From assembly GCA_022865345.1 (NCBI GenBank), contig JALHSU010000261.1, forward strand, positions 1 through 53,415: DNA of 53,415 nucleotides, given 5' to 3'. How positions within the stretch are numbered: the stretch's first letter is position 1; each line of letters opens with the position of its first letter. The stretch is from Candidatus Zixiibacteriota bacterium. Its GTDB lineage: Bacteria; Zixibacteria; MSB-5A5; RBG-16-43-9. Shown one piece after another: positions 7,037 through 53,415 of the stretch. Both the position numbers and the translations under genes were made by a program. The notes beneath the pieces are model-generated. The model saw nothing but the letters and a program-made list of their open reading frames with translations, was not told the DNA's origin and ran no database searches.

Positions 7037-7217
7037 ATGAAAATTGCATGCATAGTCCCGCAAAGACCTGATGTCCTTGCATGAATTCCATTAATGAAAT
7101 CATTTTTATTTTCAAATCATTCCAAACAGAACGGTAATCAAGGCTGTAATATTCAATAAAGGCTTTAGGTTTTTAACCTAAGGTCTTTTGTTTTAATCTG
7201 GATGTAGGAGATTTTCC

Positions 7218-10135: not shown

Positions 10136-10292
10136 CTCCGTTGGTGTCTTCACCAACGGAGCCTTGTTGGTCAGGAGACCAACAAGGAGCAAGAATGATA
10201 ACTGTCATTCTGAGCCCGTAGGGCGAAGAATCTGTTTTCAAGTAAAATTCAATTGATTCTTCAGTCGTCCATTTGGACCTCTTCAGAATGAC
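10136..10292. repeat. three hairpin modules inside the fabH-fabD spacer
   Basis: CTCCGTTGGTG-TCTT-CACCAACGGAG (10136-10161), CCTTGTTGGTC-AGGA-GACCAACAAGG (10162-10187), GTCATTCTGAG...CAGAATGAC element (10204-10292). Confidence 0.85.
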
Positions 10293-22455: not shown

Positions 22456-22475
22456 AGGAGAACTGGGTTCTGACT

Positions 22476-22648
22476 GTCATTGCGAGGAGGTCATTTGACC
22501 GACGAAGCAATCCGTCAGGTCACACGACACTCGACAGGGCTGGCACCCTCAAACTCGTTTGAGGGTGATACCGGAGTATTTTTCAATGAGTAGACCCATC
22601 TTGCCCTCAAGATGGGTTTCCATTCCCGCCTTGCGGGCAAGGCGGGAA
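22476..22648. repeat. four-module hairpin cassette
   Basis: 37-mer identical to 15747-15783 (22476-22512), CACCCTCAAACTCGTTTGAGGGTG (22544-22567), GTAGACCCATCTTGCCCTCAAGATGGGT (22590-22617), perfect 26-nt palindrome TTCCCGCCTTGCGGGCAAGGCGGGAA (22623-22648). Confidence 0.9.
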
Positions 22649-22690
22649 TACCAGATTTGCTTTTTTTCTTCTGAATGAGGACTTTTTAAA

Positions 22691-28810: not shown

Positions 28811-29132
28811 TGGCGGATGTTATCATCCACCAAGGAGGTCAGAGAGGATGATAACATCCTCGCTGATTGAGCAGACAAATGTCATTCTGAGCCCGCAGGG
28901 CGAAGAATCTGTAGATTCTTCGGTCGTCCATTTGGACTCCCTCAGAATGACAACAGTCGGGTGACACCCTCAAACTTGTTTGAGGGTGATGCAGATGTGT
29001 CGTTCTGAGCCCGAAGAGGCGAAGAATCTATAGTCAACCTGTACACCCAGGTTGCCCTCAACCTGGGTTCATATTCCCACCTTGCGGGCAAGGTGGGAAT
29101 ACCACTGACGTTCGAACTGACTTCAGTCAGGT
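28811..29132. repeat. array of seven hairpin modules between DUF2892 and EamA genes
   Basis: GGATGTTATCATCC...GGATGATAACATCC (28811-28866), GTCATTCTGAG element (28881-28951), CACCCTCAAACTTGTTTGAGGGTG (28965-28988), GTCGTTCTGAG half-unit (28999-29028), ACCCAGGTTGCCCTCAACCTGGGT (29044-29067), TTCCCACCTTGCGGGCAAGGTGGGAA (29074-29099), AACTGACTTCAGTCAGGT (29115-29132). Confidence 0.9.
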
Positions 29133-29221
29133 AATGCTTACGCAGTGAAAATCTTTTGAGCCTTTGAGCAATTAAACCAACGAGGGTTCCACCGTTATAC
29201 CTTTCAAATAGACAAAGCCTG

Positions 29222-30133
29222 ATGAATTCTTCTTCTGCCAGAAGCAGTAATTTTCTCCCCTCTTTTTTGTTTGCCGTTTTATGCCTGATCTGGGGCTCAA
29301 CCTGGTTGGGCATAAAGATAGGATTGGAGGACTCTCCTCCATTTTTGTCTGCTGGCTTCAGGTTTCTCATTGCTACGCTCTTCCTCTTTTTCTGGGCGAA
29401 GAAAAAAGGGATAAAATTTTCTGATTATAAAAGCCAGGCATTCAAAATCCTCATCCCTGGCTTTTTTATGTATTATCTTTCCTATTCCCTGGTTTACTGG
29501 GGTGAGCAGTATATAAATTCGGGGTTGACCGCAGTTCTATTTGCCACCCTTCCCTTTTTTGTGTCTATCTTTGCCACCCTGTTTTTAAAAGAAGAAAAGC
29601 TCACCTGGTTCAGATTGTTCGGGCTTGTAGTAGGATTCTCCGGCATTCTTTTAATCTTCCGGGATAGCCTAAGCCTTGAAGGAGAAAACCTGCTTCACGG
29701 AATGATTGGGATTATATTGAGTGCTGGTTTTTCAGCCTACGCTTCGGTCAGGGTTAAAAGAGACCTGCATTCAGTCGAGCCGGTAGTCATCTCAGTCTTT
29801 CAGATGGGATTGGGAACCATGCTCCTGTTAGGTTCAGGATTTCTATTTGAGAAAATCACCGATTTCAAGCTAACTTATAAATCCATCGGCGCATTGTTTT
29901 ATCTATCCTTTTTTGGCTCAGCTTTCGCTTTTATGTCTTATTACTGGCTTCTGAAGAGAATAGAGGTTACCAAACTGTCCCTGATAGCTTTCATCACCCC
30001 GATCGTGGCTTTGATCTTAGGCTGGCTGGTCCTGGGAGAGAGTATCAGCGGATACTTGATTTCCGGAACGGTTTTAGTTATAATAGGTATTTGGCTGGTC
30101 TCAAGATATGGCATAGCCGGACGGAAAAAGTAA
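29222..30133 (+). CDS. EamA/DMT-superfamily transporter
   Basis: 303 aa, about 10 TM segments, two EamA-like halves. The start is uncertain because its 5' end abuts a hairpin array. Confidence 0.85.
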   Translation: MNSSSARSSNFLPSFLFAVLCLIWGSTWLGIKIGLEDSPPFLSAGFRFLIATLFLFFWAKKKGIKFSDYKSQAFKILIPGFFMYYLSYSLVYWGEQYINSGLTAVLFATLPFFVSIFATLFLKEEKLTWFRLFGLVVGFSGILLIFRDSLSLEGENLLHGMIGIILSAGFSAYASVRVKRDLHSVEPVVISVFQMGLGTMLLLGSGFLFEKITDFKLTYKSIGALFYLSFFGSAFAFMSYYWLLKRIEVTKLSLIAFITPIVALILGWLVLGESISGYLISGTVLVIIGIWLVSRYGIAGRKK

Positions 30134-37400: not shown

Positions 37401-37713
37401 GTAGGGGCACGGCGTGCCGTCCCCCTACAAAATTCGTAGACCCATCTTGCCCTCAAGATGGGTCTTGTTTTTTTGTAGCGGAAGGCCGTCAAGTTCTTGT
37501 CCACAGGATCCTGGCGAAGACTTCAGCCTTCCATTTCTTTATTGTAGTTGCCCAATTTATTGGGCAAAGCTCGATAAATCGAGCAACTACAATTTCGTAG
37601 ATGGTAGACTCACGCTGCCCTCAACATTGGTCTGGTCATAAGTTCTTGAGAAATGAAAGGTGGATCAGGCATTCTTGCCTGACTAAAGGAACAGGCAGGA
37701 TGCCTGTTCCACC
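37401..37713. repeat. hairpin array of about 310 nt downstream of the heme-barrel gene
   Basis: GTAGGGGCACGGCGTGCCGTCCCCCTAC (37401-37428), GTAGACCCATCTTG... (37436-37464), GTAGCGGAAGGC...GCCTTCC with a loop insertion (37475-37532), GTAGTTGC[CCCAATTTATTGGG][CTCGATAAATCGAG]GCAACTAC (37544-37590), degenerate GTAGATGGTAGAC... (37597-37635), GGTGGA[TCAGGCATTCTTGCCTGA]..[GGAACAGGCAGGATGCCTGTTCC]ACC (37659-37713). Confidence 0.85.
37436..37475 (+). terminator. Rho-independent terminator after the heme-barrel gene (GTAGACCCATCTTG family hairpin)
   Basis: GACCCATCTTG-CCCT-CAAGATGGGTC followed by TTGTTTTTTT. Confidence 0.75.
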
Positions 37714-42054: not shown

Positions 42055-43114
42055 ACTTTTCCATTACTGGGAGAAAGAAGATAAGAGGAGCATCATCTCC
42101 TTTTTCTTGCGATTCCTTTCGCTTCTATACCTTACAGGATACCTAATCCGGAAATCTCTTTACGGCCTGGGGTTAATAAAGCCAAAAAAGTTAAGCGCAA
42201 AGGTCATAAGTGTCGGTAACATCACTGTTGGAGGCTCTGGAAAAACACCTTTTGTCCTCTACCTAGCAAAAAAGCTTCAAGAGAAAGGAATAATTTTTAC
42301 CATCTTAACCAGAGGATACAAAAGGTTATCAAAAGAAACTTTGGAACTAAAAAAAAGTGACTCTTTGCATATGAAATGGGAACAGGCTGGTGACGAACCT
42401 TATCTTTTAAGCAACCATCTGCCTGGAGTCCCGATAATTGTTGACAAGGACAGATTTCATTCTGGAACAATAGCTCAGGATAAATATAAAGCTGATTTTT
42501 TGCTCTTGGATGATGGTTTCCAACACTGGAGATTGAAACGAGATCTGGATATCGTGATGATCGATTCCTCAATTGATCTGAAAAAAGAAAAACTGTTGCC
42601 CGCTGGCAGGCTCAGAGAGCCTCTATCCTCTCTCAATAGAGCAAACCTCTTCGTTCTCACCAGAGTCGATCAATCTGAACACAGGGATAAAGTGAAGAAG
42701 TTATTGCAGAAATACAACCCCCAGGCTCCGATTGTAGAAAGTATCCTGCAGACAAGTTCAATCCAGAACTGGAAAGACAAAACTGAAATCAGCCTAATCC
42801 AGTTCAACGGGAAGAAAGGTTTAGCTTTCTGCGGCATCGGAAACCCTTTTTCCTTTGAGAGGACCTTGAAATCTCTGGGTCTGGAGATTTTGAATGCTTT
42901 TTTCTTTTTAGACCATTATATTTACACCCGAAAAGACCTTTTATTACTGCAAGAGGAAGCAAGAAAATCAGGAGCTGAATACCTTATCACTACTGAAAAA
43001 GATTCGATAAGGCTTCCGGATACAGGCGAATTGACTATCCCTCTGCTGGTGGTAAAAGTAGAATTAAAAATAATCTCCGGAGAAGAAAAGCTCTGGGAGG
43101 TATTGAATATTTAA
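42041..43114 (+). CDS. lpxK: tetraacyldisaccharide 4'-kinase
   Basis: 357 aa. VGNITVGGSGKTP P-loop and the DDGFQH motif. 14-nt overlap with waaA. Confidence 0.92.
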   Translation: MKKNRLFHYWEKEDKRSIISFFLRFLSLLYLTGYLIRKSLYGLGLIKPKKLSAKVISVGNITVGGSGKTPFVLYLAKKLQEKGIIFTILTRGYKRLSKETLELKKSDSLHMKWEQAGDEPYLLSNHLPGVPIIVDKDRFHSGTIAQDKYKADFLLLDDGFQHWRLKRDLDIVMIDSSIDLKKEKLLPAGRLREPLSSLNRANLFVLTRVDQSEHRDKVKKLLQKYNPQAPIVESILQTSSIQNWKDKTEISLIQFNGKKGLAFCGIGNPFSFERTLKSLGLEILNAFFFLDHYIYTRKDLLLLQEEARKSGAEYLITTEKDSIRLPDTGELTIPLLVVKVELKIISGEEKLWEVLNI

Positions 43115-43117
43115 AAG

Positions 43118-43146
43118 TTGACATGCGGGGAAGTTTGTAATAAAAT
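43118..43146 (+). promoter_or_regulatory. sigma70-like promoter of the low-GC two-gene islet
   Basis: TTGACA (43118-43123), 17 nt spacer, TAAAAT (43141-43146), directly after the lpxK stop. Confidence 0.6.
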
Positions 43147-43191
43147 AAGGTCAAAGATAAAAGGAAAAATAATTCAATAGGAACTTTTAAG

Positions 43192-43923
43192 ATGCAGCAT
43201 AAAGAGGACTTGACGTATTCAGAAGCGATTGAGCAAGTAATGTTACATAATGGATATTTTGCACCATTAAAATTGCTTTACAAAGAAATCTGGAAGTATA
43301 AAGACCAATCAAAAATTGTTGGAAAGACACCGCATATGACAATACAAGAAAGAGTTCAGAGAGATGCAAGATTTACAAGAATTGGACTTGGAGTATATGC
43401 ACTTGCCAAATTTCTTGATAAATTACCAAAAATAACTTTACCAAAAACCGAATCCGAGAAGAAAGAACGACTACATGCAAGAATTCAAGGAATGCTTATT
43501 GAAATTGGTAATAACAGAAATGAAGTCGAAAACACTTATACAAATGATAAGAAATGGATTTTTGATAATAAGACTTTGGGAAGTTTAGCAACCCTTGCAG
43601 AAGTCCCGCCTTTTACTTTCGAAAACATTATAAATGAAACTGTTCGTTTCTTTGACGTAATTTGGTTCAATCGTAGAAATTTTCCAATTCAGATTTTTGA
43701 AATAGAACGTTCTACTAATTTTAGAGATGCCCTTGTAAAGTTTATGGAGTTACAAGATTTCAGAACTACATTCTGTTGTATTTCAAATGAAGATAAAAAA
43801 CAAAAGTTTCAAAGGGAATTAAGTAAAACTGCTTTTGAGGCATTAAGAAATATATGTAAATTCTTTTCTTATGACCAAGTTGAAAGTGATTATAAAATAG
43901 CATTGAGTGAAACATATTTGTGA
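43192..43923 (+). CDS. hypothetical protein: N-terminal HARE-HTH-like winged helix plus C-terminal PD-(D/E)xK-like nuclease candidate
   Basis: 243 aa, low GC, own promoter. GKTPHMTIQERVQRDARFTRIGLGVYAL resembles the HARE-HTH signature. The C-terminal H..IQGMLIEIG ... FFDVIWF ... IQIFEIERS layout resembles restriction-endonuclease-fold cores (D155, E170, E172 by my numbering). Pattern recognition only; no search was run. Confidence 0.5.
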   Translation: MQHKEDLTYSEAIEQVMLHNGYFAPLKLLYKEIWKYKDQSKIVGKTPHMTIQERVQRDARFTRIGLGVYALAKFLDKLPKITLPKTESEKKERLHARIQGMLIEIGNNRNEVENTYTNDKKWIFDNKTLGSLATLAEVPPFTFENIINETVRFFDVIWFNRRNFPIQIFEIERSTNFRDALVKFMELQDFRTTFCCISNEDKKQKFQRELSKTAFEALRNICKFFSYDQVESDYKIALSETYL

Positions 43924-44192
43924 TGATAATTGATGGCTATGAAATAACTGCTTTTACCAATCTGAGCGAAGAAATTTGCACAAAGATTCTTGACATTGTA
44001 CAAAGAGAATTTGGCGAAATTGGAGATTTCTTAATTCAGGATGATGAAGTCGGTTTTCGAGTCTACAGAGGTTATTTTGAAAACGCACCTAAACTGATTA
44101 CAGCAGAGGAAATAAAATTAAAATTGATTGAAAAATCCGATTACCATTTCGCGCTTGGTTATGAAATTTATATAAGGAATGTAAAGGATTAA
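43923..44192 (+). CDS. hypothetical small protein (about 89 aa) coupled to the upstream gene
   Basis: ATG 43923 overlaps the upstream TGA (TGATG); a GTG at 43920 is also possible. Low GC. No recognisable motif. Confidence 0.5.
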   Translation: MIIDGYEITAFTNLSEEICTKILDIVQREFGEIGDFLIQDDEVGFRVYRGYFENAPKLITAEEIKLKLIEKSDYHFALGYEIYIRNVKD

Positions 44193-44372
44193 GCTGCTTT
44201 TTCTTGCATAAAAAACATTCAAAAGTAATTTCAGCAGTTGAATGGAAAGCCATTGGAAAAAGCCTGGTGTAAATTATCCAAATTCAAAGATATATTGAGT
44301 ATGAGTTGCAAAACGATAATTTGAAGTTCGATGAAATAAAATACTAATAATCTACAAGCCTTTAAGAATCAG

Positions 44373-46004
44373 ATGTTTCACTCCGCACAAACAGACATAG
44401 TAGACTTTTTGATCATCGGCTCAGGCATAGCTGGACTTTCCTATGCTTTGAAGGTCTCAGAGTTAGGAAGCGTTGCCATAATCACCAAGAAAAAGGACTC
44501 AGAATCTAACACCAATTATGCCCAGGGAGGGATTGCTGCGGTTTTATCGCCGGATGATTCTTTTGAGCTTCATATTCAGGACACTCTGAAGGCTGGAGAC
44601 GGGATTTGTAATCCAGAAGTGGTCAAGAAAGTGGTACAAGCAGGTCCTTTGGAAGTGCAGGAGCTCCTTAATATCGGTGTGAATTTCTCCAAAACGAAAG
44701 ACCAGTTTGACCTGGGAAGAGAGGGCGGGCATTCACGCAAGCGGGTGGCTCATGCGGCTGACCTGACCGGAAGAGAGATCGAAACTGCACTTATCCAGTC
44801 TGTAAAGACCAGAAAAAACATAAAAATCTATGAAGACCACATAGCTGTTGACTTAATCACCCAACATCATCTCAAAGATTACCGGAGAAAACCGGGAGAT
44901 AGAATAATATGCTGGGGGGCTTATGTGCTGGATGTGAAAAAAGGGAGAGTGGATAAATTACTGAGCCGGATTACCCTTTTAGCTACAGGAGGTGCCGGCA
45001 GGATCTACCAGCATACCACTAACCCGGATATTGCCACAGGGGATGGCCTTGCTATGGCTTACCGTGCAGGCGCCCGGGTGGCAAATTTAGAATTCATCCA
45101 GTTCCATCCCACTTCTTTATTTCATCCTAAAGGCGACTCTTTTCTCATTTCCGAGACGGTTCGGGGAGAAGGAGGAAAATTGAAATTGAAGTCCGGAAAA
45201 ACCTTTATGGAGAGCTACCATCCTCAAAAAGAGCTTGCTCCCAGGGACGTGGTTGCCAGGGCAATAGATGCGGAGCTTAAGAAAAGCGGAGACTCCTGCG
45301 TATATCTGGACATCACTCATCTGGACAAGGAATTCATCCTGCGAAGATTCCCCAATATCTTTGGCCGCTGCCTGGCTCTGGGGATAGACATTACCAGGGA
45401 CTGGATACCGGTAGTTCCGGCAGCCCATTATATGTGTGGAGGAGTCGTCACCAATCTGGATGCGGAAACTGACATTGACAACCTCTATGCCTGCGGTGAA
45501 GTGGCGATGACCGGAATGCACGGTGCCAACCGGCTGGCATCCAATTCCCTGCTGGAAGCAGTTGCTTTTGCGAATTTTGCCGCTGAAGCCTCAAGAAGGA
45601 AATTTGAATCTGACAGGAGTTTTGATTTTCCCCGGATACCTGAATGGAGCACCAAAGGAGTTTTTGACCAGAAGGAATGGGTGATAATCTCCCATGCCAG
45701 GCAGGAGATACAGTCTTTTATGTGGAATTTGGTGGGTATTGTCAGATCAAACAGCCGTCTGGAGATGGCTAAAGCGAGGATCGACATTCTGCTTGAGGAG
45801 ATAACCGAATTCTATCATAAAAATCCAGTGACCTATGAGGTCATAGAGTTGAGAAACATCTCTCAGGTGGCAGAGCTTGTCATCCGCTCCGCTCTTTTGC
45901 GTAAAGAAAGCAGAGGCTTGCATTATAATCAGGATTACCCGAAAAAGGATGACCAGAACTGGAAAAAGGATACGGTTCTCCTTGAAGTTGAATCTGAGGA
46001 GTAA
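44373..46004 (+). CDS. nadB: L-aspartate oxidase
   Basis: 543 aa. DFLIIGSGIAGLS FAD motif and the HYMCGG and RGLHYN blocks. Confidence 0.93.
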   Translation: MFHSAQTDIVDFLIIGSGIAGLSYALKVSELGSVAIITKKKDSESNTNYAQGGIAAVLSPDDSFELHIQDTLKAGDGICNPEVVKKVVQAGPLEVQELLNIGVNFSKTKDQFDLGREGGHSRKRVAHAADLTGREIETALIQSVKTRKNIKIYEDHIAVDLITQHHLKDYRRKPGDRIICWGAYVLDVKKGRVDKLLSRITLLATGGAGRIYQHTTNPDIATGDGLAMAYRAGARVANLEFIQFHPTSLFHPKGDSFLISETVRGEGGKLKLKSGKTFMESYHPQKELAPRDVVARAIDAELKKSGDSCVYLDITHLDKEFILRRFPNIFGRCLALGIDITRDWIPVVPAAHYMCGGVVTNLDAETDIDNLYACGEVAMTGMHGANRLASNSLLEAVAFANFAAEASRRKFESDRSFDFPRIPEWSTKGVFDQKEWVIISHARQEIQSFMWNLVGIVRSNSRLEMAKARIDILLEEITEFYHKNPVTYEVIELRNISQVAELVIRSALLRKESRGLHYNQDYPKKDDQNWKKDTVLLEVESEE

Positions 46005-47612: not shown

Positions 47613-47640
47613 TGTCTACTGTCTGCTGTCTACTGTCTAC
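47613..47640. repeat. four tandem heptamers TGTCTAC/TGTCTGC (GTAGACA on the kinase sense strand)
   Basis: tgtctac tgtctgc tgtctac tgtctac. The kinase stop codon lies in the last unit. A degenerate three-unit copy lies at 50580-50600 at the 3' end of the paralog. Confidence 0.85.
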
Positions 47641-50561
47641 TTTTTTAGTTTTTTTAGCCTTTCCTTCGCATCTGCAACTTCTGGAATCCCCGGGTCAGCA
47701 TTCTTCCAGATATCCAGAAACTCCTCATATTTCTCAATCGCTTTGTTGTTCCAGCCCGATTTCTCATAAGCCAAACCCAGAAGATAATAAGCTTTCACTG
47801 CTTCTGTACGCCATACCCTGTCATTATCATATCTCGAAAGTGCCTTTTCTAATTCAGCTACTGCTTCGTCCAGTCTGCCTATCTTTAAGTAAATTTCCGC
47901 AAGATGAGTACGCCTGTAAAAAGATGGGGTCGGGGCATCTTTCTCTGCCTTTTCAAAATAATCTATTGCCGTCTTAATGTTTCCTTTAGCCTGTTCAATG
48001 TCACCTAAGGTCCACCAATAAATATACATCAGGGTTGGATTCTTTTGCTCAATATCCTTTTTGAAAGCCCGGGTGAGTTCTTCAGCTTCACTGATTTTTC
48101 CACTCTTTGCCAGAAGACTGGCATAATAATCCTTCCCATTGTCCGGGTCGTTAGGTGTTACCTTTTTAAGAATTTCTATGCCAATTTCTGCTTCTTTTAG
48201 TGCTAAACTCCACTTTTTCTTATCCTCATAGATTGATGCCTTCATGAGATGTTTATATGCATTCGCCTCTTCCTCAACCTGTTCCATTCTGTCTGCTGCA
48301 ATACCATCGTCTAAAGTCCTAAGGGCTTCTTCGAGCTTTCCCTGGTATAGGGGAATCAAAGCTAAGCAGAGCCTGCCTCCTGACCTGTAAACCTTCTCGT
48401 TGCTGGAAGAAAGTGCCTCATAACAGCTTTCCGCATGAGCATAATCCCTTTTGAAAAGATACATATCCCCCAGTTTGAACCGAGACATATAGAAGTCCGG
48501 TTTTATCTCTAAAGCTTTTTTGTAAGATTCAATTGCCTGGTCGAGCTTACCATTCCAGGCATATAAATCAGCTCTTGAATCGTAGGGATTAGGTTCATCC
48601 GGGGCTAATTCTATATACTTATTTATAGCCCAGATGGATTTATCAAAATCCCCGATTTCATTGTAAGCATAGGCAAGGGCATTATATGCAACCTTATAGA
48701 GAGGATCTATCTGAATGGCTTTGTTAAGGTAATAAATTGCCTCTTTGAACTCGTGGAGCTTATCAGCATACATGTAAGCCCCTAAAATATAAAATGCCTC
48801 TTTTTCGTCGGGATAGCGTTCCACGATCTTTTGTAGTTCTTTAATCGACTCACTGTAATTCAGTGATACATACGCGGCCCAGGATTTTATTTGATATTTT
48901 TCCTTCTGACTGGCTTTGTCCGAATATTTCACTGCTTTAGCCGTTAATCTTTTCTTCTCCTCACCCCTTTTTGAGGAAGCCAACCTGTAATATGCCATCG
49001 CAAACGTGGAATCATATTCCAGAGCTTTCATAAAACTTTTCTCCGCCTCTGTAAAGTAATATTTATTAAAGTTATCCATCCCCTCCAGATAGTAACGATA
49101 TGCCTGCTGTGAATGAGTGGTAACATCTGCTACTGGTTTTTCCAGTTCTTTTTTCGCCTGTTCCGGCAAAGTTAAAGCATTTGCTATCTGTGCACTTAAC
49201 TTGTCAACAACTGAGAATAGGTCCTCACCTGCTGCGCTGCTGACCTGTTTGGTAGCTAACAGCTTACCACTTGTGGCCTCGGATATCTCCGAGATCAAAA
49301 CCATATTCGGTTTAGTCTGAAGTACCGTTCCGGTCACAATCCATTTCACCCCCGCTTTTCTTGCAACCTCTGAGGCAACGGTTTTATCTATTACATTCAA
49401 ATTCTCTTTGCCTAAAAGCTTTAAAATGTCATATAATCTTTGACTGCTCACCACTTGCAGATATTGAGGTGATTCAGAGAGACCTGCTATCAATAGATGG
49501 GTAATCATCCGTGCAATTTTATCTTTGTCCTCAGGATCTTTCAAATTTTCAAAATACATTATGGCTAAGGAGTTCTCTTTGGCTACTGCACCTTTTTCCG
49601 GACCAATCTCAAATTTGAAAGGTCTGAGAATTAAGAAAAGTAAAACTAAGATAAAAACAACTGATGCAGGAATTGCAATCGGAAGAAATCTCCTTTTAGG
49701 CTTGGGTACTGTTACCTCTTTAGGAATCTGTCCAGTTTTCAGATATTCCAGAGTCTTCTTTTCGTGCCTCAAATCTGCTAATAAATCATCAATATGCTGG
49801 TATCTTTCCTCTTTATCTTTTGCCAGTGCTTTGAAAACTGTCCGCTCCAACTCTGATGAAACTTTATTGTTATATCTGGCTACTTGCTGGGGCTCTTCGT
49901 TGATTATAGAATAAACAATAGCAGCTTGATGTTCTCCTCCAAAAGGAAGTTTCCCGGTCAAAAGCTCATATAAAACCACTCCAAAAGAGAATATATCACT
50001 TCTGGAATCTACTTCCTCGCCTTGAGCTTGTTCTGGCGACATATAGGCAAGGGTACCTATGGTTGAACGAGTCTTGGTTAGCTTGGTGGCTCCTTTCAGT
50101 TTAGCTAAACCAAAGTCCATTATCTTAACCTGTCCCTCTTTGGTAACCATTATATTGTCTGATTTTATATCCCGATGAACTATCTCCTTCTTGTGAGCGG
50201 CGGTTAAACCTTCACAGATCTGAATTCCGATGTCTAAAACCTTTTTTATAGAAAGGGGCTCTTTTTCGATTATCTGCTTTAAAGTCTTACCCTCGCAGTA
50301 TTCCATCACTATAAACATCTGCCCCTCAAATTCATCAATCTCGTGGATGGTAGTGATGTTAGGATGATTCAGGGCAGAAGCAGACTGCGCCTCGTGGATA
50401 AAACGTTCTTTTTCTTCTCCACTTTCAGAAATGTGAGGAGGCAGAAATTTCAAAGCCACGGTGCGTTTGAGCTTAGTGTCCTCTGCTTTGTACACCACGC
50501 CCATCCCACCTTCGCCAAGCTTTTCTAAAATCTTGTAATGAGAAATTATTCTGCCGATCAT
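47637..50561 (-). CDS. Ser/Thr protein kinase with TM segment, periplasmic domain and long TPR array
   Basis: 974 aa. GEGGMGVVYKA, HRDIKSDN, DFG and SPEQ motifs. TM segment LPIAIPASVVFILVLLFLIL. At least 8 TPR-like repeats. Confidence 0.9.
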   Translation of the reverse strand: MIGRIISHYKILEKLGEGGMGVVYKAEDTKLKRTVALKFLPPHISESGEEKERFIHEAQSASALNHPNITTIHEIDEFEGQMFIVMEYCEGKTLKQIIEKEPLSIKKVLDIGIQICEGLTAAHKKEIVHRDIKSDNIMVTKEGQVKIMDFGLAKLKGATKLTKTRSTIGTLAYMSPEQAQGEEVDSRSDIFSFGVVLYELLTGKLPFGGEHQAAIVYSIINEEPQQVARYNNKVSSELERTVFKALAKDKEERYQHIDDLLADLRHEKKTLEYLKTGQIPKEVTVPKPKRRFLPIAIPASVVFILVLLFLILRPFKFEIGPEKGAVAKENSLAIMYFENLKDPEDKDKIARMITHLLIAGLSESPQYLQVVSSQRLYDILKLLGKENLNVIDKTVASEVARKAGVKWIVTGTVLQTKPNMVLISEISEATSGKLLATKQVSSAAGEDLFSVVDKLSAQIANALTLPEQAKKELEKPVADVTTHSQQAYRYYLEGMDNFNKYYFTEAEKSFMKALEYDSTFAMAYYRLASSKRGEEKKRLTAKAVKYSDKASQKEKYQIKSWAAYVSLNYSESIKELQKIVERYPDEKEAFYILGAYMYADKLHEFKEAIYYLNKAIQIDPLYKVAYNALAYAYNEIGDFDKSIWAINKYIELAPDEPNPYDSRADLYAWNGKLDQAIESYKKALEIKPDFYMSRFKLGDMYLFKRDYAHAESCYEALSSSNEKVYRSGGRLCLALIPLYQGKLEEALRTLDDGIAADRMEQVEEEANAYKHLMKASIYEDKKKWSLALKEAEIGIEILKKVTPNDPDNGKDYYASLLAKSGKISEAEELTRAFKKDIEQKNPTLMYIYWWTLGDIEQAKGNIKTAIDYFEKAEKDAPTPSFYRRTHLAEIYLKIGRLDEAVAELEKALSRYDNDRVWRTEAVKAYYLLGLAYEKSGWNNKAIEKYEEFLDIWKNADPGIPEVADAKERLKKLKK

Positions 50562-50582: not shown

Positions 50583-53415
50583 CTACTGCCTACTGTTTGC
50601 TTTCAGTTTCTTCAGTCTTTCCTTTGCATCCGCAATTTCCGGTATCCCAGGGTCAGCATTTTTCCAGATATCCAGAAACTGCTCATATTGCTCAATTGCT
50701 TTTTTAGTCCAGCCTGATTTCTCATAAGCCAAGCCTAAAAGATAATATGCTTTCACTGCCCTGGAAGACCATACTCTGTCATCATCATATCTTGAAAGTG
50801 CTTTTTCTAATTGAGATACTGCCTCGTCCAGTCTGCCTTTATTCAAGTAAATTTCTGCCAGATGACAACGGAGATCAAAAGACGGAGTTGGTGAGTCCTT
50901 ATACGCCCTTTCTAAATAGCTCAATGCCATGTTTGTGTCCCTTTTGATTAACTCAATGTCGCCCAATGTCCACCAGTAAGAAAACATCAGCTTTGGATTC
51001 TTCTCCTCAATATCCTTTTTTAAAGCCTTTGCTAATTCCTCAGCTTCAGCGATTTTTCCACTCTTAGTGAGAAGAAAAGCGTAACCATCCCTCCCATATA
51101 TTGGATCATCAGGTTTGGCTTTTTTGTATATTTCCATGCCTATCTCTGCTTCCTTTAACGCTAAACCCATCTTTTTCTGCCTTTCACAGAGAAGAAATGC
51201 CTTATCGAAATGTTTATAGGCGTTCAATTCTGATTCAAACTGTTCCATTCTGTCTGCGGCAATGCCATCGTCCAGAACCTTGAGGGCATCTTCAAATTTC
51301 CCCTGATAAAAAGGAATATGTTTTAAGTATAACCTTCCCATCGACCTGTAGAACTTTTCACTGCTGGATGAGAGTGCCTGAAAACAGCTTTCCGCTTTAG
51401 CATAATCCTTCTTGAAAACATACATATCCCCCAGTTTCCAGCGAGATAGATAAAAATCTGGTTTTTTCTCTAAAGCTTTTTTGTAAGATTCAATTGCCTG
51501 GTCGAGTTTTCCGTTCCGGGCATAAAGGTCACCTCTGGTATCATAGGGATTAGGTTCATCCGGGGCTAATTCTATATACTTGTTTATAGCCCAGATGGAT
51601 TTATCAAAATCCCCCATTGCATCGTAGGCATAGGCAAGAAGATTGTAAACCATCTTGTAGAGAGGGTCTATCTGGATGGCTTTGTTAAGGTAATGAATTG
51701 CTTCTTCGGACTGGTGTAGATTGCGATAATAAATATGCCCTAAGGTAAAAAATGCCTGTTTTTCATCAGGATAACTTTCCACTATCTTTTTTAGTACCTT
51801 TATAGCTTGAGGATAATCACCTGTTACATATGCCTCAAAGCCTTCAATATAGAGTTTCTCCTTGTGGGTTATCTTATCTGTGTATTTTGCAGCTTTGGTA
51901 ATAGACTCTCTTGCTGCCCGAGTATCGCCTTCATAGTTTTTAGTCACTGCCAGCCAATAATAAGCCATAGCAAAGGTAGAATCAAGTTCCAGAGCTTTAT
52001 TGAAACTTCTCTCTGCCTCTGCAAAGTAAAGTTTATAACAGTAATCAGTGCCTTCGAGATAGTAACGATATGCTTCTTGGGAATGGGTGGTAACCTTAGC
52101 TACTGATGGTTCCTTCTCCTGCTGGGCTGAGACAGGAAGCGAGAAATCTTTTTTTAATGCTACGGTTAGTTTATCAACCAAAGAAAAGATGTCTTGTTCC
52201 TTCTCTCCGGTGATTCGCTGGGATGCTTTTATTTCACCGGTTCCGACATCAACTAACTGGGTCGTTATTTCGATTCTTGGCTTAACTTGAAGTATACTCC
52301 CCAGAAGCATCCACTTAACCCCGGCTTTTGTAGCAACCTGGGTTGCCATATTCTTATCTATCCTTTTCTCTCCTTCCCTGCCTAAAAGCTTGAGGATATC
52401 ATACAATCTCTGGCTGGATACTACCTTGAGATATTGTGACTCCGATAAACCAGTGATAAGCAGGTTAGTAACAATTTCGCCAAGCTTTTGCTTGTCCTCC
52501 GGATCAACCAGATTGTCAAAATACATCACTGCCAGGGAGTTCTCCTTAGCTATTGCCCCTTTTTCCGGAGCTATTTCAAATTTGAAAGGTTTAAGAATCA
52601 AGAAAAGTAAAACCAGGATGACCACAACTGAGGCAGGAATTGCAATCGGAAGAACTTTCCTTTTAGGCTTGGGAAGAATAACCTCTTTAGGAATCTGTCC
52701 GGTCTTCAGATAATCCAAGCTCTTTCTTTCCCTTCTTAAATCTGCCAGAAGATCATCTATGTGCTGGTACCTCTCATCTTTTTCTTTTACCAATGCCTTG
52801 TAAACCATGTCTTCTAATTTAGCTGAGACCTGATTGTTGAAACGGGCTATTGGTTGTGGCTCCTCGTTGATTATTGAGTAGATAACAGCGGCTTGATGCT
52901 CTCCAGCAAAAGGAAGCTTACCGGTCAAAAGCTCATATAAGACCACTCCAAAAGAGAAAATATCGCTTCTCTGGTCAACTTCCTCACCTTGTGCTTGCTC
53001 TGGTGACATATAGGCAAGAGTCCCTAAGGTCGAGCGGGTCTTGGTAAGCTTGGTAGCTCCCTTTAGTTTTGCCAGTCCAAAGTCCATTATCTTAACCTGA
53101 CCGCTAGGAGTAAGCATTATGTTGTCTGATTTGATATCCCTATGCACTATACCCTTCTCATGAGCCATCGCCAGACCTTCGCATATCTGTATCCCGATAT
53201 CTAAAACCTTCTTTATAGAAAGAGCTTCTTTCTCAATCGCCTGCTTTAAAGTCTTACCTTCTACATATTCCATCACTATAAACATCTGCCCTTCAAACTC
53301 ATCTATCTCATAAATGGTGGTGATATTGGTATGATTCAAAGCTGATGCGGCTTTGGCTTCGTGGATGAATCTTTCTTTCTCCTCAAACTCAGAGGTCAGG
53401 TGAGGTGGCAAAAAC
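50583..53415 (-). CDS. paralogous Ser/Thr protein kinase/TPR protein (5' end beyond the window end)
   Basis: Same architecture as 47637..50561 and roughly four-fifths identical by eye. The reading frame is open to the window edge, and the track's M at 53411 is internal. Confidence 0.9.
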   Translation of the reverse strand, partial: FLPPHLTSEFEEKERFIHEAKAASALNHTNITTIYEIDEFEGQMFIVMEYVEGKTLKQAIEKEALSIKKVLDIGIQICEGLAMAHEKGIVHRDIKSDNIMLTPSGQVKIMDFGLAKLKGATKLTKTRSTLGTLAYMSPEQAQGEEVDQRSDIFSFGVVLYELLTGKLPFAGEHQAAVIYSIINEEPQPIARFNNQVSAKLEDMVYKALVKEKDERYQHIDDLLADLRRERKSLDYLKTGQIPKEVILPKPKRKVLPIAIPASVVVILVLLFLILKPFKFEIAPEKGAIAKENSLAVMYFDNLVDPEDKQKLGEIVTNLLITGLSESQYLKVVSSQRLYDILKLLGREGEKRIDKNMATQVATKAGVKWMLLGSILQVKPRIEITTQLVDVGTGEIKASQRITGEKEQDIFSLVDKLTVALKKDFSLPVSAQQEKEPSVAKVTTHSQEAYRYYLEGTDYCYKLYFAEAERSFNKALELDSTFAMAYYWLAVTKNYEGDTRAARESITKAAKYTDKITHKEKLYIEGFEAYVTGDYPQAIKVLKKIVESYPDEKQAFFTLGHIYYRNLHQSEEAIHYLNKAIQIDPLYKMVYNLLAYAYDAMGDFDKSIWAINKYIELAPDEPNPYDTRGDLYARNGKLDQAIESYKKALEKKPDFYLSRWKLGDMYVFKKDYAKAESCFQALSSSSEKFYRSMGRLYLKHIPFYQGKFEDALKVLDDGIAADRMEQFESELNAYKHFDKAFLLCERQKKMGLALKEAEIGMEIYKKAKPDDPIYGRDGYAFLLTKSGKIAEAEELAKALKKDIEEKNPKLMFSYWWTLGDIELIKRDTNMALSYLERAYKDSPTPSFDLRCHLAEIYLNKGRLDEAVSQLEKALSRYDDDRVWSSRAVKAYYLLGLAYEKSGWTKKAIEQYEQFLDIWKNADPGIPEIADAKERLKKLKANSRQ

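Follow-up and report, generated by a model that had tools for sequence, protein, structure and literature searches.

What kind of system occupies the AT-rich 1.26 kb (positions 43115-44372) that separates lpxK from nadB in a contig of a Candidatus Zixiibacteriota bacterium (GCA_022865345.1, JALHSU010000261.1; the whole stretch of 53,415 nucleotides that was analysed is called the window here)? This islet carries two intact open reading frames (ORFs) on the same strand, gene 1 and gene 2, which a preliminary description had taken for a recently acquired stand-alone defence system that could not be assigned to a named family. With a probability that we put at roughly 55%, the islet is instead the surviving core of an acquired type II, type IIS-like, restriction-modification (R-M) cassette, reduced to a solitary nuclease module and its small partner.

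Gene 1 does belong to a named family. Among its 748 homologs in a large protein collection, the best 120 are 63-94% identical over their whole length, and all the homologs listed, including a relative at 94% identity, bear a precomputed tag for PF27126 (NmeDI_C), which stands for the class of matches at E <= 1e-5. The Pfam library that was scanned directly has no PF27126 model, and scans of gene 1 against this library, NCBIfam and PHROGs gave nothing significant; comparisons with PDB sequences, by single sequence and by profile, yielded chance matches only. The PADLOC profile REase_II (PDLC03534) matched gene 1 of the window at E 2e-4, aligning gene-1 residues 95-238 with profile positions 178-328, and it recognised 34 of the 36 members of the family that were scanned (best E 6.8e-11). 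The 351 positions of this profile correspond to the length of R.NmeDI, and the aligned part is the C-terminal half of that enzyme. Moreover, distant plasmid homologs with the same C-terminal domain carry type II restriction endonuclease annotations. R.NmeDI of Neisseria meningitidis has been characterised experimentally and cleaves on either side of RCCGGY, at 12/7 nt (PMC2095814). It counts among the symmetric type IIS enzymes, a class in which recognition and cleavage are assigned to separate domains, the C-terminal cleavage domain being non-specific (PMC4081073).

The AlphaFold2 (AF2) model of gene 1 (predicted local distance difference test, pLDDT, 76; predicted template-modelling score, pTM, 0.70) is compatible with this family link. 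A predicted alpha-beta-beta-beta-alpha-beta core is formed by helix 87-108, strands 114-117, 156-159 and 165-171, helix 177-186 and strand 193-198. Five residues of this region are invariant across 36 gene-1 homologs, E104 in a helix, D155 in a strand, E170 and E172 in the next strand and K183 in a helix, among them the three (D155, E170 and E172) that had previously been named. In the model the acidic residues and K183 lie where the catalytic residues of a PD-(D/E)xK nuclease are expected, and it is from predicted topology, invariant residues and family links that we take the domain to be probably of this type.

The N-terminal part of gene 1 is predicted to form a winged helix, with TPHMTIQERVQRD as recognition helix and ARFTRIGLGVYAL as wing. 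Foldseek aligned the model with forkhead domains and with RNA polymerase delta/RpoE (probability 0.85-1.0, TMt 0.30-0.67, E about 0.03-0.2; for example 8x6g_E with a probability of 0.96 and TMt of 0.60, and 9a6y_A, RPOE, with 0.85 and 0.30), the forkhead domains scoring slightly better. Twelve residues of the module (T46, P47, T50, V55, Q56, R57, F61, G65, L66, G67, Y69 and L71) are invariant in the 36 homologs. The model thus supports a winged-helix fold and resembles the N-terminal domain of RNA polymerase delta. HARE-HTH domains (PF05066; Aravind and Iyer 2012, as cited in PMC11037411) are likewise winged helices, with a TP...RF.R.G.G.Y.L signature in helix 3 and wing that gene 1 shares, but the extra helix that they insert in the helix-turn-helix (HTH) is missing from the gene-1 model, which has only a loop at residues 36-46. 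Gene 1 of the window had no Pfam match to PF05066 at E <= 1, and in the family as a whole only 2 of 36 members gave a hit, in both cases below threshold (best E 0.034). The N-terminus had been called HARE-HTH-like; the fold is supported, and membership of the HARE-HTH family is not established. The broader idea of a DNA-binding module joined to a restriction-type nuclease agrees with the predicted winged helix and with the PF27126 and PADLOC matches.

Relatives of the pair are found in R-M operons. When the neighbours of gene 1 were clustered across 89 loci, an N6_N4 DNA methyltransferase (MTase) was located directly upstream in 28 of them, co-directional with gene 1 and abutting or overlapping its start, and a D12-class adenine MTase downstream in 15. 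Complete cassettes, as labelled by Pfam, consist of the N6_N4 MTase, gene 1, one or more small ORFs and the D12 MTase, and their chromosomal sites differ. In PDB sequences, searched for a clue to specificity, the best matches of the N6_N4 enzyme, both weak, were an adenine MTase annotated as DpnA (E 4.5e-9) and M.MboIIA (E 3.6e-7), and the D12 enzyme had no match. Two MTases around one restriction gene are the usual layout of a type IIS enzyme with an asymmetric site (PMC2095814), and judged by its sequences the N6_N4 and D12 arrangement of the relatives appears to be type IIS-like.

In the clade nearest to the window, the N6_N4 MTase, gene 1 and gene 2 are followed by a protein of 241-251 aa, named c5 here, which is weakly similar to NucS_C and PDDEXK_15 (Pfam E 0.004-0.016; e.g. 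L018:7013-7768 and L003:9031-9756) and may have been a second nuclease-like component of the ancestral cassette. A tblastn search with full-length c5 proteins found its last 19 codons in the window (RYIEYELQNDNLKFDEIKY, 44288-44344, with the stop at 44345-44347; E 8e-4), where about 165 bp have been deleted. In two metagenome contigs with the same islet, L001 and L013, about 100 C-terminal c5 codons with interrupting stops follow gene 2 (tblastn E 6e-38). The remnant after gene 2 therefore makes the islet the rest of a larger R-M cassette. Thus, the description of a two-gene islet is right as to the intact ORFs, but the 180 bp before nadB hold the end of a lost third gene and are not a spacer; and since relatives carry the pair in R-M operons with one or two MTases, the notion of a system that was self-contained and new by origin has to be abandoned.

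The cassette was acquired by insertion. A genome scan with the LpxK of the window as query retrieved two relatives whose lpxK-nadB junction is empty, and because the islet is absent from both, it is an insertion at this junction. Between the lpxK stop and the nadB start there are 62 bp in L011, a Candidatus Zixiibacteriota metagenome-assembled genome with an LpxK 90% identical to that of the window, and 3 bp in L012, where LpxK is 69% identical. The window and L011 align collinearly until shortly after the lpxK stop and diverge beyond it, and the alignment places the right border of the islet about 20 bp 5' of the nadB ATG, with no obvious target duplication at the borders. The same islet is present at the same junction in three metagenome contigs (L001, L013 and L022). 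The flanking genes encode LpxK upstream (Pfam 4e-88) and a NadB-type FAD_binding_2 flavoprotein downstream (Pfam 2e-96). With a GC content of 0.310 against 0.437 for the whole window (0.29-0.33 over 43100-44300, and 0.40-0.52 in the flanks), the islet is as AT-rich as first noticed, and the horizontal acquisition that had been proposed is now supported by the two empty sites. A phage origin, which was also considered, is unsupported: the phage database held no gene-1 homolog, and the single match in viral contigs was 32% identical. L012 (CAZMZF010000003.1) is labelled 'uncultured Ignavibacteria', and its whole kdtA-lpxK-nadB-guaA order matches the Zixiibacteriota-like window, so that its taxonomic label or binning may be unreliable.

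Table 1. Features of the lpxK-nadB islet (positions in the window)
Feature	Position	Strand	Details	Basis
Left junction and leader of the islet	43115..43191	+	Holds the promoter at 43118-43146	Alignment to L011
Gene 1	43192..43923	+	243 aa; predicted winged helix and NmeDI-type endonuclease	PF27126 homologs, PADLOC, AF2 model
Gene 1, residues 9-71	43216..43404	+	Predicted winged-helix module (H1-S1-H2-H3-S2-S3)	AF2 secondary structure, Foldseek
Gene 1, residues 87-239	43450..43908	+	Putative NmeDI_C cleavage domain	PADLOC, invariant residues, AF2
Gene 2	43920..44192	+	Acidic small partner; 89 aa from ATG 43923 or 90 aa from GTG 43920	
c5 remnant and right junction	44193..44372	+	Last 19 codons of c5	tblastn with full-length c5 proteins

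The leader of the islet contains a sigma-70-like promoter (TTGACA-17-TAAAAT) in which 11 of 12 positions match. It is the sole strong site in the region, where the total of promoter-like sites is not elevated (7 observed, 5.8 expected by shuffling), and it is kept in the islets of the lpxK-nadB lineage. The leader is common only to the other lpxK-nadB islets, L001, L013 and L022; a mobile unit made of gene 1, gene 2 and their own promoter was therefore ruled out. Intergenic gaps of the window (e.g. 10197-10235, 22475-22653, 28874-29141 and 37401-37468) contain short, GC-rich hairpin repeats that fall into a dozen families or more (D8-D20), none of which has a copy within 43115-44372; there are also no inverted repeats of 10 nt or more in 43000-44450. 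The near-consensus promoter and the hairpin-free character of the islet were thus both found as first described. In L011 the empty site (about 7075-7136) contains a D13-type hairpin copy (GTCATTCTGAG...GAAGAATC); this exact hairpin does not occur in the window at up to 3 mismatches, where the related D13 family is present. L001 still has a related hairpin, placed between lpxK and the promoter of the islet, which the window, L013 and L022 have lost.

Both genes of the pair are under purifying selection. Between the window and L001, both of which are MTase-less, the ratio of nonsynonymous to synonymous substitution rates (dN/dS) is 0.088 for gene 1 (dS 0.285) and 0.16 for gene 2, with dS at 0.24-0.29 over the two genes. 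The MTase status was scored in 31 distinct gene-1 loci whose flanks were adequate: 6 have one or more cassette MTases of full length, 7 have only fragments and 18 have none. Screening by motif for further N6/N4 and C5 MTases yielded just one more candidate. MTase-less copies are scattered across the tree, keep every catalytic residue and show no fixed residue difference from MTase-linked copies. The recognition helix, TPxxT[IV][QM]E[RK]VQRD, is conserved in both, which suggests the same specificity in the two contexts. A 112-aa MTase remnant precedes gene 1 and gene 2 in L103, both MTases are truncated in L096, and in L102 gene 1 stands between two aminoacyl-tRNA synthetase genes.

Two loci deserve a separate comment. 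In L102 (GCA_017973855.1, JAEMOG010000272.1; 6786-7961) the synthetases are those for isoleucine and histidine and gene 1 is 75% identical to that of the window; a 72-aa ORF extends into its start, and an MTase-like GNFIPQIPNQF can still be read in the DNA upstream. The contig bears archaeal or eukaryote-type markers (NMD3, eIF-5/eIF-2B), which indicates a transfer between domains of life. In L022 (L022:6001-7001 aligned with 43151-44200) identity to the window drops to 0.67-0.79 only in the body of gene 1, 43301-43900, against 0.92-0.95 in the flanks and at the start of gene 2; by its sequence, gene 1 of L022, a 76%-identical allele, looks like a replacement in situ by recombination.

Gene 2 is a real, conserved protein, with 34 close homologs and only 27 representatives in an exhaustive profile search of 1.84 billion proteins. 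In all 30 loci where it is found it lies directly 3' of gene 1, mostly with a 4-nt overlap; in the window its start overlaps the stop of gene 1 within GTGATG, an arrangement consistent with translational coupling. Its AF2 model is alpha+beta and of very high confidence (pLDDT 94.7). Foldseek against PDB and BFVD gave no significant match and the Pfam, NCBIfam, PADLOC and PHROGs profiles no match at all, so that gene 2 remains, as already reported, a protein with no recognisable domain. Longer proteins containing the gene-2 domain offered no informative fusions, one of them (P0163) being a repeat artefact. The slot 3' of gene 1, examined in 91 loci, is occupied by gene 2 in 30, by a family called c3 in 25 and by other small ORF families in 24, and 12 have no ORF there. 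The c3 protein (L034:1809-2102, L094:8737-8916 and 23 more loci) follows gene 1 in the MTase-linked clade, in forms of 97 aa and 60 aa, both with a zinc-ribbon-like motif of four cysteines (CxxC...CxxC) at the C-terminus, and matches no family; in other clades the slot holds ORFs of 126 aa or 77-80 aa. Since c3 and these families replace gene 2 elsewhere, the small-partner slot is variable. Homology of gene 2 to c3 was tried and ruled out (hhalign probability 0.1).

Taken as the remains of an R-M cassette, the islet might work as follows. The cassette would have been inserted between lpxK and nadB in one Candidatus Zixiibacteriota lineage; the MTases known from relatives would then have been lost here, and the third gene would have decayed to its 19 codons. 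The winged helix of gene 1 is predicted to read DNA, and the NmeDI-type, PD-(D/E)xK-like domain would cut near the site so bound, probably after dimerisation as in NmeDI or FokI, with E104, D155, E170 and E172 as candidate metal-binding residues together with K183. The product of gene 2 is most likely a subunit that binds the nuclease and regulates or restrains it. Because both genes are still under purifying selection, the pair would now act as a nuclease module on its own, with defence against foreign DNA as its most plausible role, and the host could be protected by an unlinked MTase of the same specificity, by restraint through gene 2 or by a low intrinsic toxicity of the enzyme. A bolder version holds that the nuclease outlives its MTases because self-protection is independent of methylation, either through restraint by the small, variable partners, lifted once a trigger appears, or through an intrinsic selectivity for foreign DNA; we regard this as possible, though tentative and on balance doubtful, and the same reserve applies to its corollary, that a type IIS cassette gave rise to the pair as a restriction module with no need of an MTase.

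Several observations weigh against the islet being the core of an R-M cassette. Foldseek with the whole gene-1 model returned no significant nuclease match (1xmx was weak, with a root-mean-square deviation of 15), and residues 121-151 are of low confidence in the model. The PD-(D/E)xK-like character first ascribed to the nuclease domain is supported only by predicted topology, invariant residues and family links, and not by a significant structural match; PADLOC recognised gene 1 through REase_II, and Foldseek recognised its winged helix only. As had been noted, no MTase adjoins the pair, and a profile search of all 53 kb of the window for relatives of the cassette MTases found none. A full-length MTase accompanies gene 1 in only 6 of the 31 scored loci, although gene 1 is intact, and a classical restriction enzyme is expected to be lethal to a cell that lacks its methylase. 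The restriction gene in this family regularly outlives the modification genes, whereas R-M systems usually decay in the opposite order. Finally, in other clades the slot after gene 1 is filled by unrelated small ORFs or is empty, and gene 2, as one of several occupants, is not essential to the nuclease.

The two kinds of defence suggested at the outset, type IV-like and toxin/immunity-like, would each account for a part of these data, but neither is favoured. If gene 1 were a type IV, modification-dependent enzyme, its winged helix would read a mark such as N6-methyladenine (6mA), modified invader DNA would be cut and no methylase would be needed, as in the window and in the 18 of 31 loci with no MTase, to which the 7 with fragments only may be added. 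Fusions of a winged helix and a nuclease have indeed been shown to be 6mA-dependent enzymes, 87% of them with no MTase neighbour and some beside frameshifted MTases (PMC11037411). In the window gene 1 likewise stands alone; in its family as a whole, 13 of 31 loci have an MTase or its remnant (6 of them intact operons), and the published share of type IV fusions with a neighbouring MTase is 13% (PMC11037411). Nevertheless, at least 6 divergent members of the gene-1 family belong to operons in which full-length MTases abut or overlap gene 1, and this disfavours the type IV proposal because a methyl-dependent enzyme of matching specificity would kill its own host in such an operon. The lack of fixed differences between MTase-linked and MTase-less proteins, with their identical recognition helix, also speaks against it, as do the domain order (winged helix, then PD-(D/E)xK) and the NmeDI_C nuclease, which differ from the published families, and the lack of DpnI-type winged-helix domains among the top 50 fold matches of gene 1. 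We therefore consider a type IV enzyme unlikely. An addiction module, in which gene 1 is a DNase toxin and gene 2 a stoichiometric inhibitor that replaces methylation, would agree with the co-directional, overlapping genes, with their opposite charges (isoelectric point 4.55 and net charge -8 for gene 2, isoelectric point 8.8 for the basic gene 1), with the exclusive position of gene 2 directly after gene 1 in all 30 loci and with the scarcity of full-length MTases at gene-2 loci (1 of 10, against 5 of 8 at c3 loci; Fisher p = 0.04, not corrected for phylogeny). But gene 2 and c3 are both missing from 13 of the 31 distinct loci, where full-length MTases are missing too, and at some MTase-less loci gene 1 persists with no downstream ORF at all. 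The slot beside a highly conserved nuclease is occupied by unrelated small proteins, be it the zinc-ribbon c3 or the ORFs of 126 aa and 77-80 aa, and so does not show the co-variation expected of an immunity protein; in L022, likewise, gene 1 was exchanged for a 76%-identical allele and the start of gene 2 is still about 95% identical. With gene 2 after gene 1 in just 30 of 91 loci, the pair also differs from a toxin-antitoxin system with its obligatory partner, and we find this reading quite improbable.

Two further possibilities take the islet out of defence. Gene 1 could have another role, such as that of a methyl-directed endonuclease in nicking or repair, or of a DNA-binding regulator, which would explain both its unusually high conservation, at 63-94% identity across Zixiibacteriota, Planctomycetes, Treponema and an apparently archaeal contig, and its tolerance in cells with no methylase; it is, moreover, often found among housekeeping genes. 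This is hard to reconcile with the patchy distribution and variable insertion sites of the family, with the empty site in L011, whose LpxK is 90% identical, with the family link to a proven restriction enzyme and with the invariance of the catalytic residues in gene 1, and we think it very unlikely. The islet might also be the inert relic of a dead R-M cassette, its MTases gone, its third gene reduced to 19 codons and its AT-rich composition not yet drifted to that of the host. However, both ORFs are intact, the invariant residues are kept, dN/dS between MTase-less islets is 0.09-0.16 and the lineage has preserved the strong promoter, all of which leaves an inert relic only the slightest chance of being correct.

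As the core of an R-M cassette, the pair can be compared with several known systems. Gene 1 and R.NmeDI share a homologous C-terminal cleavage domain and a modular build in which recognition precedes cleavage, and the R.NmeDI gene overlaps the 3' end of the upstream MTase gene, as gene 1 does in relatives. But NmeDI has 351 aa with a different N-terminal region of about 177 aa, and gene 1 has 243 aa, of which about 75 make up its winged helix; gene 1 lacks the NmeDI-type recognition region, its PADLOC alignment covering only profile positions from 178 onwards. NmeDI has one MTase partner (M.NmeDI, presumably a C5 enzyme), whereas gene-1 relatives have the N6_N4 and D12 MTases and the window copy none, and a small partner such as that of the window pair has not been described for NmeDI. 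Two-MTase type IIS systems such as MboII and FokI resemble the cassettes of the relatives, with their order of MTase, restriction gene, small ORF(s) and MTase, in having a restriction protein with recognition and cleavage modules, and M.MboIIA is among the PDB matches of the N6_N4 MTase; the recognition module of gene 1 is far smaller than that of FokI or MboII, and the window has lost both MTases. The type IV winged-helix fusions (DpnI, FcyTI, HhiV4I and others; Helbrecht et al. 2024, PMC11037411) also combine a winged-helix reader with a nuclease in about 240-250 aa and are mostly stand-alone, sometimes beside MTase remnants, as is gene 1; they differ in domain order and nuclease family, and several members of the gene-1 family, unlike them, are in intact MTase operons. 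The nuclease domain is thus of a known, experimentally anchored family and is not categorically new. What is new with respect to NmeDI is the compact architecture of winged helix and NmeDI_C, the association of relatives with MTases of adenine/N4 type, the frequency of copies that lack an MTase and are still under selection, and the uncharacterised family of gene 2.

Other features of the window were recorded beside the islet. Tandem copies of about 2.9 kb, 75-82% identical (47643-50417 and 50601-53384; repeat families D1-D7), coincide with large minus-strand ORFs, one of which (47637-50498) clusters with gene-1 neighbours in L001, L003 and L083. They are probably paralogous large genes, comparable to an 832-aa ORF of L011 that appears kinase- or tetratricopeptide repeat-like from its sequence alone. 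A 303-aa ORF with an SPPF motif (29222-30133, plus strand) was positive in a crude MTase motif screen and negative with both cassette-MTase profiles. Palindrome avoidance was tried as a guide to the recognition site and was uninformative, CTAG, GGCC, GATC and CATG all being depleted in the host window and no 4-mer palindrome being absent.

To conclude, restriction enzymes are expected to die before their methylases or along with them, and our results describe a conserved restriction-family nuclease that is retained under selection in many phyla after the decay or loss of its methylases. If this is true, there would be a class of modular nucleases that are tolerated with no cognate methylation, and a role for a family of small proteins. 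Compact enzymes made of a winged helix and a cleavage domain also have a practical appeal, as reagents of a type IIS-like kind. In annotation, the PF27126 proteins of 240 aa that are now labelled 'hypothetical' may be read as restriction-type nucleases.

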